From Lentisphaerae bacterium GWF2_50_93 (GTDB lineage Bacteria; Verrucomicrobiota; Lentisphaeria; Victivallales; GWF2-50-93): a DNA stretch of 64,000 nucleotides. The position numbers and the translations under genes are program-made. The stretch lies in the NCBI GenBank assembly GCA_001804815.1, contig MHBI01000088.1, positions 12,224-76,223 of the forward strand. The letters are read 5' to 3'. Below are positions 48,142-50,201 of this stretch, in pieces (within the stretch, counting starts at the first letter, position 1; each line of letters opens with the position of its first letter). The notes beneath the pieces were generated by a model that was given only the letters and a program-made list of their open reading frames with translations, was not told the origin of the DNA and searched no databases.

Positions 48142-49044
48142 ATGAATGCCAACGAACTTAAGAACTTTGCGAAGTCAAAGGGTGCTGACCTTATCGGTAT
48201 CGCACCAGTCGAAAGATTCGCCGGACTGCCGGCCAACAAGAATCCGCTGTCGATCTTCCCGGAATGCAAGTCTGTGATCGTAGTCGGACGCCGCATCCTG
48301 AGAGGCGCGCTCCGCGGAGTGGAAGAAGGGACTAACTTCCATTCGACCTATTCCACCTTCGGCTACAAATGGCTTGAGGATAACTTCCTCGCCAGGACAA
48401 CCTACGATCTCACCTGCCACATTGAAACCCAGGGATTCGAGGCCGTTCCACTTTTCGGTTATACGGAGGAGGGAATGCCTACCGGAGCGCCTGTCGCCCC
48501 TGGGAAACCGGCACCTAACGTCCTGGTCGACCTTGATTTCGCCGCGTATGCGGCCGGACTCGGCGAGCTTGGACTCGGTGGATTCTTCATCACGCCTGAA
48601 TTCGGGATAAGGCAGCGTTTCGCCATGATCCTCACAGATGCAAAGCTCGTGACTGACACGGTTGTCTCCCAGAATATCTGCGGCAGCTGCGAAGCCTGCG
48701 CGAAGGTATGTCCGTTCGGCGCAATTGACAAGACTAAAATGAAGAAGACCGGTGATTCTGAAATATCCGTCTCATCGGCGACGATAGATTATTCCATATG
48801 CGCATCATGTCCGAACGGCGCGATGCAGGGGCCAGGAAGAGGCAGCAGGCCGGACAGGATCGCGGCGATCTGCGGCAGGACATGCATGGTGAAGCTCGAG
48901 GAGGCCGGAAAATCCTCGAACAAATTCGAGAACAAGTTCCGCAAGCGTTCAGTCTGGCTGCTGGACGGTTTCAAAAACCCGGTCGCGGCGGAAGACATGC
49001 CGGACGCCTCGGATCTAGGTTGCTCGAAGCAGTATGCAAAATAA
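48142..49044 (+). CDS. QueG/RdhA-superfamily-like iron-sulfur protein (300 aa), cytoplasmic
   Basis: AAAGGAG is the RBS. The N-terminus is AKSKGADLIGIAPVERF...ECKSVIVVGRR. The superfamily-typical segment is AAGLGELGLGGFFITPEFGIRQRFAMILTDAKL. The ferredoxin motif is CGSCEACAKVCPFGAI, with further Cys residues (CASCPNG, CGRTC). No Tat or Sec signal is present. Confidence 0.6.
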   Translation: MNANELKNFAKSKGADLIGIAPVERFAGLPANKNPLSIFPECKSVIVVGRRILRGALRGVEEGTNFHSTYSTFGYKWLEDNFLARTTYDLTCHIETQGFEAVPLFGYTEEGMPTGAPVAPGKPAPNVLVDLDFAAYAAGLGELGLGGFFITPEFGIRQRFAMILTDAKLVTDTVVSQNICGSCEACAKVCPFGAIDKTKMKKTGDSEISVSSATIDYSICASCPNGAMQGPGRGSRPDRIAAICGRTCMVKLEEAGKSSNKFENKFRKRSVWLLDGFKNPVAAEDMPDASDLGCSKQYAK

Positions 49045-49094
49045 AAATTCTCCTCCAGGAGAATTTTTATAACATAGAATAAGGAGAAGTAAGA

Positions 49095-50201
49095 ATGAAA
49101 CTCACATCACAGATGATCAAGCAGGCGGCTTTCAATGCCGGCTGCGGGGATATAGGCATAGCGAACATAGAACGTTTCAAGAACGCACCGCAGATGATGC
49201 ATCCGTCGAATATCTTTCCGGACTGCAAGTCCGTCATAACAATTGTCCAGCCGATCCCCCGTGGCTCCTACAGGGGAATCACGGAAGGGACGCACTGGGC
49301 GAACTATACATATTATTCATATAACAAACTGAACACTTTATTCCGTCCCTTTGTGACCTATGAAACCGCATGTTTCATTGAAGACCATGGATTCGAGGCA
49401 GTACCTCTTTATCCCGGAGTACCGGAAAGACCCGGACTCCAGAAGCCTGTCGCCGAAGGGCGTCCGCCGGCAGAGATCAACATAAACGTCCGTATCGCCG
49501 GAGTCGCCTGCGGGATGGGCGAAATGGGATGGTCGAAAGTGTTCATCCACCCGAAATTCGGTCCGCGTGTCAGACTTGGCACAATCCTGACAGATGTCGA
49601 ACTCGAACCCGATCCCCTTGTAAAGCCCGGCACCTTCTGCAACAAGTGCATGCGCTGCGCGAAGGATTGCCCCGGAGGAGCGATACCCAAGCCTGGAGAC
49701 CGTCCATCCATCAAGATCAAAATCGACGATACTGAATACGAGTGGGGTGATGTCCACATGGGCCGCTGCACGCTGACCCATCACGGATTGAACTGGGAGG
49801 CGTCGCCGTTCCTGAAGAAGGACATGCCCGGGTTCAATCTGGATGTGAGGAAGTCAACGATGTCTGAGGAGGAAGCCTACAGGATGACATATCCCATGGC
49901 ATTGGCGAAGTGGCAGCCTTCACCGGAATCGCCTTCGAACAGTGTCATGACCTACTACAACCAGATCATCAGCCATACCAGCTATTTTGCGATATGCGGC
50001 GCGAAAGGCTGCATAAGGGGATGCATGGACAGTCTGGAAAAGAGGAAAAAGGTCGGTCAGTGCGAATTCCACACGAAAGTCTCCCCTCGCCCGGCTTGGA
50101 AGCTTGAGCATCCTGAGACCGACAAGACCGGGGGCATAGCCGAAGGCAAGTTCCCCGAGATGTACAATAATCCTGAGCCAAATCCCGGAGCGTGGAAGTG
50201 A
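49095..50201 (+). CDS. QueG/RdhA-superfamily-like iron-sulfur protein (368 aa), paralogue
   Basis: AAGGAGA is the RBS. Matching segments are FNAGCGDIGIANIERF...DCKSVITIV, ACGMGEMGWSKVFIHPKFGPRVRLGTILTDVEL, CNKCMRCAKDCPGGAI, and a later CGAKGCIRGC. Confidence 0.6.
   Translation: MKLTSQMIKQAAFNAGCGDIGIANIERFKNAPQMMHPSNIFPDCKSVITIVQPIPRGSYRGITEGTHWANYTYYSYNKLNTLFRPFVTYETACFIEDHGFEAVPLYPGVPERPGLQKPVAEGRPPAEININVRIAGVACGMGEMGWSKVFIHPKFGPRVRLGTILTDVELEPDPLVKPGTFCNKCMRCAKDCPGGAIPKPGDRPSIKIKIDDTEYEWGDVHMGRCTLTHHGLNWEASPFLKKDMPGFNLDVRKSTMSEEEAYRMTYPMALAKWQPSPESPSNSVMTYYNQIISHTSYFAICGAKGCIRGCMDSLEKRKKVGQCEFHTKVSPRPAWKLEHPETDKTGGIAEGKFPEMYNNPEPNPGAWK

Follow-up and report, generated by a model that had tools for sequence, protein, structure and literature searches.

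A conserved pair of signal-less RdhA/QueG-like iron–sulfur proteins encoded with an IclR regulator in a Lentisphaerae genome

To our knowledge, class III B12 enzymes have only two established functions, the reductive dehalogenation carried out by RdhA proteins and the reduction of epoxyqueuosine by QueG, and in every characterised relative that we know of the CblC/nitroreductase-like domain binds a corrinoid in the base-off form. A conserved tyrosine stands above the corrin (Y246 in PceA, Y101/Y105 in QueG). The authors of the QueG structure foresaw further families, with no sequence motif by which to find them (PMC4646009). Here we describe a candidate for such a family: two adjacent genes, A and B, with a fused paralogue, C, and two genes for IclR-family regulators, iclR1 and iclR2, all within a 64,000-nucleotide stretch of contig MHBI01000088.1 of Lentisphaerae bacterium GWF2_50_93 (the window, whose numbering is used throughout; features are on the forward strand unless stated otherwise).

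The closest sequence and fold match of A and B is RdhA, represented by PceA of Sulfurospirillum and Desulfitobacterium (TIGR02486). Common to these proteins are the N-terminal GADLVGIA strand, the AGLGxxG...ITPEFGPxxR loop, an arginine at the position of PceA R305 and a module for two [4Fe-4S] clusters. PceA is dimeric, as A and B probably are too, but PceA is a homodimer, whereas A and B are two different subunits. Unlike RdhA, A and B are only 300–368 amino acids long, without a twin-arginine translocation (Tat) signal, an RdhB partner or the N-terminal extension of about 140 amino acids; they also fall below the family cut-off and have another second-cluster motif. NpRdhA and BhbA are cytoplasmic like A and B, and have been reported with IclR/MarR-type regulation (PMC12219181). 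By contrast with these enzymes, A, B and C have no fused NAD(P)H/flavin/[2Fe-2S] reductase module, the template-modelling (TM) scores against NpRdhA are only 0.2–0.45, and C comprises three domains, two of them with clusters. QueG (TIGR00276; PDB 5D08 and 5D6S) resembles A and B in being cytoplasmic and signal-less, in beginning directly with the cobalamin-binding domain and in part of its ferredoxin cysteine pattern. CblC (MMACHC) and CblD, the next structural matches, have the same nitroreductase-like corrinoid-binding fold, but unlike A and B they lack a ferredoxin module, and the similarity is far weaker (E ~5e-3).

Sequence and fold of the A and B proteins

Gene A (48142..49044) lies behind an AAGGAG ribosome-binding site and encodes a signal-less, 300-residue protein of the RdhA/QueG fold with two [4Fe-4S] binding motifs. 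Gene B (49095..50201) encodes its 368-residue paralogue, in which the ferredoxin module is enlarged by an insert of about 75 amino acids and the chain ends in a conserved tail. Both open reading frames (ORFs) are real at the coordinates given in a preliminary description of this DNA made from the sequence alone, and their paralogy, which that description read from common motifs, is borne out by alignment: BLASTP finds 41% identity across the first 198 residues (E 5e-46), and profile–profile alignment matches the A family to the B family from end to end (E 5e-51), with the insert of B falling between the ligands of the second cluster. In each protein the conserved domain starts near residue 14. 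The segments quoted for the pair are present, namely the N-terminal motifs GADLIGIAPVERF / GCGDIGIANIERF, the loop GLGELG..ITPEFGIRQRFAMILTD / GMGEMG..IHPKFGPRVRLGTILTD and, in A and B alike, CxxCxxCxxxCP.

Eight cysteines are invariant in the A family (C180, C183, C186, C190, C220, C223, C244 and C248) and eight in the B family (C182, C185, C188, C192, C225, C301, C306 and C310), which is enough for two [4Fe-4S] clusters per protein. These cysteines align to the cluster cysteines of QueG, giving A and B the bacterial-ferredoxin module that marks the superfamily. The second-cluster motif takes the form Cx2C...Cx3C in A and C...Cx4Cx3C in B. Many polar and aromatic residues are invariant in the N-terminal domain of both proteins.

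Membership of the QueG/RdhA superfamily, as first proposed from motifs, holds by hidden Markov models (HMMs) and by fold searches, none of which placed the proteins outside it. Pfam gives only sub-threshold ferredoxin matches for A and B. Against the curated NCBIfam models, A, B and C score 46.5, 62.5 and 103.2 bits with the reductive dehalogenase model TIGR02486, for which the cut-off is 160 (160.35) bits, and 34.8, 34.8 and 58 bits with the QueG model TIGR00276, for which it is 200 bits; every score is therefore under its cut-off. When B is searched against all PDB sequences, the significant matches are PceA, NpRdhA and QueG, with two marginal and unrelated ones at E>0.5. Family profiles sharpen the PceA match, which reaches 5e-13 with the B profile and 1e-17 with the A profile (PceA 8q4h at 1.1e-17, and QueG at 3.4e-08), and otherwise add ferredoxin-type or marginal matches only. 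An AlphaFold2 model of B (pLDDT 85, pTM 0.84) tells the same story in Foldseek, where all 46 PDB matches at E<=0.001 are RdhA, NpRdhA or QueG, followed by CblC and CblD. In hhalign, residues 2–224 of B align to residues 8–241 of Escherichia coli QueG with a probability of 92%, a span indicating homology throughout the corrinoid-binding domain and in the ferredoxin domain too. A and B thus very probably have the fold and clusters of the RdhA/QueG superfamily.

The loop most conserved with RdhA and QueG, AGLGExG...ITPEFGxRxR, is kept in A, in B and in the first and third domains of C (C-d1 and C-d3). In the solved enzymes this loop packs on cluster I, and the cofactor shields cluster II (PMC4646009). 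An invariant arginine, R159 in A and R160 in B, falls in the HMMER alignment column of PceA R305 and NpRdhA K488, a position without an equivalent in QueG, which has Tyr or Phe there; to judge from this alignment, the retained arginine is an RdhA-specific active-site feature. Mapping of the catalytic Tyr, Asp and Arg is ambiguous in that HMMER local alignment and hhalign disagree, and we take the correspondence of R159/R160 to the PceA R305 column alone as reliable. Invariant tyrosines lie near the site aligned to the DYH motif of QueG (Y71, Y74 and Y76 in B, Y70 in A), and hhalign sets the catalytic aspartate of QueG (Bs D134) at P110 of B, beside the invariant E111.

The pair had been held to be neither a tRNA-modification enzyme nor a respiratory one, and both distinctions stand. 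We reject QueG orthology of A and B on the HMM scores, on the missing DYH motif and on the missing HEAT-like domain: the string DYH is absent throughout A, B and C, the motif itself aligning in hhalign to K78-L79-N80 of B, there is no HEAT or DUF1730 match in A or B, A stops about 50 amino acids past its last cluster cysteine, and the tail of B is unrelated. Respiratory RdhA is likewise rejected. Neither N-terminus, MNANELKNFAKSKGADL or MKLTSQMIKQAAFNAGCGD, shows an RR motif or a hydrophobic stretch, so that a Tat signal is absent; no small ORF with multiple transmembrane segments, as expected of an RdhB-like anchor, lies beside A and B in the window, and no rdhB-like gene recurs among 80 related loci; and the scores of 46–62 bits are far below 160. 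Pfam detects no FAD, NAD or Fer2 domain in A, B or C. Nor does the A/B family belong among the RdhA-like classes described in PMC12219181, of which the cytosolic one matches NpRdhA at TM-scores of 0.92–0.95, whereas B reaches about 0.44.

Operon structure and the fused paralogue C

The preliminary description put an IclR gene immediately on either side of the pair and read the pair as being under IclR control. Both flanking genes are genuine, with HTH_IclR and IclR_C domains above the Pfam cut-offs in each. The first, iclR1 (47280..48044; HTH_IclR 1.2e-11, IclR_C 1.2e-28), is the first gene of the operon. Its ORF opens at 47256, and the ATG at 47280, which stands behind a GAAGGAG ribosome-binding site, is most likely the start. 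IclR control of the pair is backed by synteny. Neighbourhoods were compared in one representative genome per species, for 80 species, with genes called by a frame-specific composition model. Throughout this set the order A>B is constant, and in 46 of the 61 measurable loci no more than 31 nt separate the stop of A from the start of B, the two overlapping in 6. A gene for an IclR protein lies directly upstream of A in 42 of the 69 loci in which the upstream gene is readable, and is co-oriented with A in 38. Taken together with the sequence features at its borders, iclR1–A–B is an autonomous operon. In one quarter of the loci (20/80), mostly from gut Victivallaceae, a third paralogue is present and the order is iclR>A>A'>B (L055–L090, gut and other Victivallaceae/Lentisphaeria), which implies a three-subunit version of the enzyme in this clade.

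Further downstream, gene C (56875..59238) encodes a 787-residue protein made of three fused copies of the A/B domain. The first (C-d1, residues 1 to ~290) and third (C-d3, ~465 to 787) carry Fe–S motifs and the second (C-d2, ~300 to 450) carries none; C-d2 keeps a 'FITPEFG' loop without cluster ligands and is vestigial. BLASTP of C against A and B accordingly returns two strong stretches and one weak one, and an AlphaFold2 model of C (pLDDT 91, pTM 0.93) repeats the alpha/beta topology three times. The best PDB match of C is NpRdhA, over ~540 columns (E 3e-15), with CblC and CblD coming after RdhA and QueG. NpRdhA is itself a dehalogenase in which the active cobalamin-binding domain is accompanied by a vestigial one (PMC12219181). 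Within residues 260–269 of C-d1, an invariant histidine, H260, stands where C-d3 and B have the first cysteine of Cx4Cx3C, which suggests a His-ligated or otherwise atypical cluster in C-d1.

The second regulator gene, iclR2 (50624..51364; HTH_IclR 1.9e-11, IclR_C 2.8e-07), follows a candidate sigma-70-like promoter at 50556..50584 (TTGACA, 17 nt, TATGTT; 10 of 12 consensus positions, a consensus match only). The IclR protein reported directly downstream of the pair is a true one, but by synteny it belongs to the C module. An IclR gene directly precedes C (IclR>C) in L001, L009 and L010, as it does in about 24 of 41 metagenome loci, some of them with C relatives at just 31–38% identity. An uninterrupted iclR–A–B–iclR–C array occurs in a Victivallaceae chromosome and, in the same order, in metagenome locus L094, and some genomes have iclR–A–B and iclR–C at separate loci. 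This synteny identifies iclR2 as the regulator of C and not as a second regulator of A and B. The block between iclR2 and C at 51450–56564 holds a VapB/PIN pair, a PadR gene, a gene for an 884-aa VIT-domain membrane protein, an exosortase (EpsH) gene and a small ORF. Since iclR2 and C are adjacent in related genomes, this block of about 5 kb looks like an insertion that has split the iclR2–C module in this genome.

The 5' boundary of the iclR1–A–B unit is marked by two hairpins at 47114..47180, at the end of the upstream RHS/PPC operon. The first, at 47114–47135, is a perfect 10-nt inverted repeat, ATGCCGACCT/AGGTCGGCAT; the second, as read in the sequence, is GC-rich and is followed by a T/A-rich tail. 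A candidate sigma-70-like promoter for the unit lies at 47211..47238 (TTGACG, 16 nt, TATTTT; 9 of 12 consensus positions, again a consensus match only). At the 3' boundary, a terminator-like hairpin at 50289..50321 has a 10-bp stem with 6 GC pairs and the T-rich tail CCTTTTCAAT.

The spacer between iclR1 and A contains a long imperfect hairpin (48037..48122) built on the 8-nt repeat GGATTGNT, with 39-nt arms that are 74% complementary. Its predicted RNA fold of −35.4 kcal/mol (z = −5.5) may serve in transcription attenuation or in stabilisation of the mRNA. The window contains 24 matches to this repeat, where 8.8 would be expected, and the repeat forms intergenic blocks at 48037–48122, 50207–50248, 50407–50455, 7403–7543 and 28948–29112, often as inverted pairs that give long hairpins. 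We rejected the idea of an operator array, because the repeat is also found in unrelated intergenic regions and is therefore not operon-specific; it looks like a REP-like (repetitive extragenic palindromic) intergenic element of this genome. A different palindromic core, GCCGACCTnnAGGTCGGC, brackets the operon at 47114–47135 (5' of iclR1) and 50291–50310 (3' of B), and may represent a second repeat family; its copy behind B scores as a terminator.

Distribution and genomic context

Full-text literature searches found no publication describing the A/B/C family, and no Pfam or NCBIfam model covers it; some source annotations label its members 'epoxyqueuosine reductase'. A/B/C is a new family-level variant inside a known superfamily, set apart by its probably heteromeric make-up, its fused three-domain paralogue and its dedicated IclR regulators, and conserved throughout the Planctomycetota–Verrucomicrobiota–Chlamydiota (PVC) superphylum. 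Clustered at 90% identity, homologues number 876 for B, 764 for A and 382 for C, and the wider A/B/C family accounts for 183 clusters at E<=1e-30 among 1.84 billion representatives. B is encoded in at least 535 species genomes from the Lentisphaerota, Kiritimatiellia, Verrucomicrobiota, Planctomycetota (including Brocadiaceae) and Armatimonadota, whose habitats span groundwater, sediment, bioreactors and the guts of ruminants and humans.

Conservation of B is high, the homologue clusters being 64–91% identical across phyla and all full-length sequences falling into one 50%-identity cluster. A protein with 100% identity to A is encoded in a groundwater Lentisphaeria metagenome-assembled genome (GCA_003516325.1), in which contig DPCG01000084.1 has the gene order of the window. 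Among the related loci L011–L090, B of the window is 70–76% identical to its counterparts in Planctomycetota, Verrucomicrobiota and Armatimonadota and 60–65% identical to those of gut Victivallaceae, which are of the same phylum. Identity is thus out of step with taxonomy, suggesting either that the operon has been transferred laterally among anaerobes or that the assemblies contain binning errors.

The glycan-catabolic neighbourhood claimed in the preliminary description is not found near the pair. Upstream are RHS/YD-shell and PPC/fn3 genes, part of a run of giant co-oriented ORFs at 7828–46905 (4503, 2311, 1587, 1589, 1608 and 987 aa). The ~1600-aa ORFs at 34204–38973 and 39119–43945 have RHS-repeat/YD-shell matches, and the 987-aa ORF encodes a PPC/fn3 protein with an RHS-repeat match. 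Downstream comes the toxin–antitoxin/exosortase island already described, with its VapB/PIN, PadR, VIT-domain and exosortase genes. With RHS toxins on one side and a mobile-looking island on the other, a glycan-catabolic setting is unsupported locally. The few sugar-related genes of the window lie more than 40 kb off and encode a SASA esterase, a protein with a weak heparinase-like match, a xylose-isomerase-like TIM-barrel protein (5809–6795, reverse strand) and a Zn-dependent dehydrogenase (2179–3234, reverse strand), the last two being ~42–46 kb from A and B. The dehydrogenase is 27.5% identical to a Zn-dependent alcohol dehydrogenase (Zn-ADH) encoded directly 3' of B in four Victivallaceae loci.

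The accompanying guess of a modified-sugar substrate fares better elsewhere, gaining contextual support in other genomes while lacking nearby sugar genes in the window. In Kiritimatiellia and some Lentisphaeraceae (~9–12 species sharing one arrangement), the genes run MFS or SSF transporter > C > GH20-like > A > B > GH20-like, with GH123, GH89 (NAGLU) or a MurQ-like SIS protein encoded upstream and no IclR gene. Genes for sugar-phosphate and sugar-nucleotide metabolism accompany the family in L001, L010 and L160: phosphohexomutase genes and a HAD phosphatase gene adjoin iclR–A–B and iclR–C in two genomes, and a block encoding PGM/PMM, a nucleotidyltransferase, a GHMP kinase and a Zn-ADH adjoins iclR–C in a distant clade. 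Together, the glycoside-hydrolase and sugar-phosphate contexts point to an amino sugar or another sugar-derived compound as substrate.

A second recurring neighbour is an MtaA/CmuA-like gene, which adjoins A/B or C in 11 of 121 loci (L011, L012, L015, L020, L022, L057, L094, L100, L113, L143 and L147) and is absent from the window. Its product has the uroporphyrinogen decarboxylase (URO-D) fold and an HxC zinc motif, scores higher on MtaA/CmuA models than on HemE models and is often encoded together with an AraC regulator. Characterised members of the MtaA/CmuA family act on corrinoid-bound methyl groups, and this neighbour provides weak independent support for corrinoid chemistry.

A proposed cytoplasmic reductase and its alternatives

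We propose that A and B, as its two subunits, make up a class III cobalamin-type cytoplasmic enzyme that is co-transcribed with its own IclR regulator. The explanation that we favour as a whole, with a probability of roughly 0.55, is a cytoplasmic heteromeric corrinoid/[4Fe-4S] reductase acting on a small, probably sugar-derived substrate. Each subunit would comprise an N-terminal CblC/nitroreductase-like domain followed by a ferredoxin module with two [4Fe-4S] clusters. A ferredoxin or flavodoxin would act as low-potential donor and feed electrons to the clusters, the clusters would reduce a base-off corrinoid to Co(I), and Co(I) would bring about the two-electron reductive cleavage of a C–X or C–O bond in an imported small molecule; we infer both the electron donor and the reductive chemistry. 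The substrate, the product or a related metabolite would be the effector of IclR1 and IclR2 that induces A/B and C.

Within this proposal the A·B heterodimer would correspond to the homodimer of PceA and to the pseudo-dimer of NpRdhA, and C with iclR2 would be a covalently fused, three-domain version in the same system. Tight co-transcription, the fused C protein and the dimeric or pseudo-dimeric state of the solved relatives are together most economically explained by an A·B heteromer, and A and B probably do form one. Corrinoid dependence is somewhat favoured over its absence. As to the substrate, a modified sugar or glycan-derived compound is the best candidate that the neighbourhoods offer, and we put it forward tentatively.

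Several observations weigh against the proposal. The model of B reaches TM-scores of just 0.36–0.45 to solved structures. The tyrosine of the QueG DYH motif is set by hhalign at L79 of B, in a low-confidence stretch of the alignment, and Y106 of B is Phe or Thr in some homologues. Rfam finds no B12 riboswitch, nor any other RNA family, in the window, and the neighbourhoods show no recurring gene for B12 uptake or salvage. No sugar genes are close to A and B in the window; elsewhere, the glycoside-hydrolase context traces to a single clade of common descent, and most loci sit amid unrelated housekeeping genes. The class also has no sequence motif diagnostic of corrinoid binding (PMC4646009), and because of this, and because the model contains no ligand, we infer the B12 dependence of A and B rather than read it from the proteins.

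Some of the same points would fit a cobalamin-independent Fe–S protein, in which the N-terminal domain has lost corrinoid binding, holds a flavin or nothing, and serves electron transfer, redox sensing or a different chemistry. The lack of a diagnostic B12 motif and the descent of the fold from flavin-binding nitroreductases (both PMC4646009) are compatible with such a loss, as are the unplaced active-site tyrosine, the low TM-scores to B12 enzymes and the absence of a B12 riboswitch from the window and of B12 genes nearby. However, the AGLGExG...ITPEFGxRxR loop is kept in A, B, C-d1 and C-d3, the N-terminal domain has many invariant polar and aromatic residues, which speaks for a specific site for a cofactor or substrate, and a corrinoid-methyltransferase-like neighbour recurs. 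We consider this explanation unlikely.

We regard as improbable a non-respiratory, catabolic or detoxifying organohalide reductive dehalogenase, for which a natural halogenated substrate such as a halophenol or halogenated acid would be sensed by IclR. RdhA is the nearest known family by every score (46–103 bits with TIGR02486 against 35–58 with the QueG model), the top PDB matches are PceA 8q4h and NpRdhA, the basic partner of the RdhA catalytic tyrosine (PceA R305/NpRdhA K488) is invariant in A and B, and cytosolic RdhA-like genes have been reported beside IclR/MarR regulators (PMC12219181). All of these scores are nevertheless far under the cut-off of 160, and A and B are 130–200 amino acids shorter than RdhA, the N-terminal region being missing. 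The distribution also differs: rdhA genes are patchy, multi-copy and mobile, whereas this family is almost universal among glycan-degrading anaerobes, gut Victivallaceae being one example, and is extremely conserved there, as a single-copy unit amid housekeeping or sugar genes, with no halogen-related gene recurring nearby.

Slightly less probable again is a role in corrinoid handling, either as a self-activating corrinoid/Fe–S protein working with an MtaA/CmuA-like methyltransferase, for example in the anaerobic demethylation of O-methylated sugars, or in CblC-like processing during corrinoid salvage. Such a role would account for the MtaA/CmuA-like neighbour, with its HxC zinc motif and its preference for those models over HemE, and for CblC and CblD as the next structural matches behind RdhA and QueG. 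Xylose-isomerase-like TIM-barrel genes, from the superfamily of the corrinoid-remodelling CbiR (PMC7733943), also occur in several loci. Yet the methyltransferase-like gene is missing from the window and from ~90% of loci, no pterin-binding methyltransferase or B12-binding-domain protein recurs, and the window has no B12 riboswitch by Rfam. Genes of the AP_endonuc_2 type are very common in PVC genomes, which makes their proximity to A, B or C weak evidence.

Finally, a split or heteromeric QueG, isofunctional as an epoxyqueuosine reductase, has in its favour a real homology and the occasional annotation, and is very unlikely in view of the 34.8 bits of each subunit against 200, the lack of a DYH motif and of a HEAT-like tRNA-binding domain, and a set of three paralogous genes with dedicated IclR regulators, sometimes in glycoside-hydrolase operons, that is ill-suited to a housekeeping tRNA enzyme.

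The corrinoid-dependent heteromeric reductase could, in its most far-reaching form, add a third functional class to the class III cobalamin enzymes, an IclR-induced cytoplasmic reductase that removes a substituent from a glycan-derived sugar in anaerobic PVC bacteria. This version is speculative, and we hold it to be doubtful. Candidate reactions would be C–O cleavage of a sulfate ester, of a methyl ether or of the N-glycolyl/hydroxyl group of an amino sugar; we know of no sugar-catabolism enzyme that performs such a reductive cleavage.

For a third function among class III B12 enzymes, the locus provides a concrete, abundant and tightly conserved candidate. It is a simple genetic unit, consisting of a regulator and two subunits plus the fused paralogue, and cultivable relatives exist, for example Victivallis. 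If its substrates are indeed derived from glycans, the system would bring a B12-dependent reduction into the anaerobic breakdown of polysaccharides by PVC bacteria of gut and sediment, and many database entries at present labelled 'epoxyqueuosine reductase' or 'ferredoxin' would be corrected.

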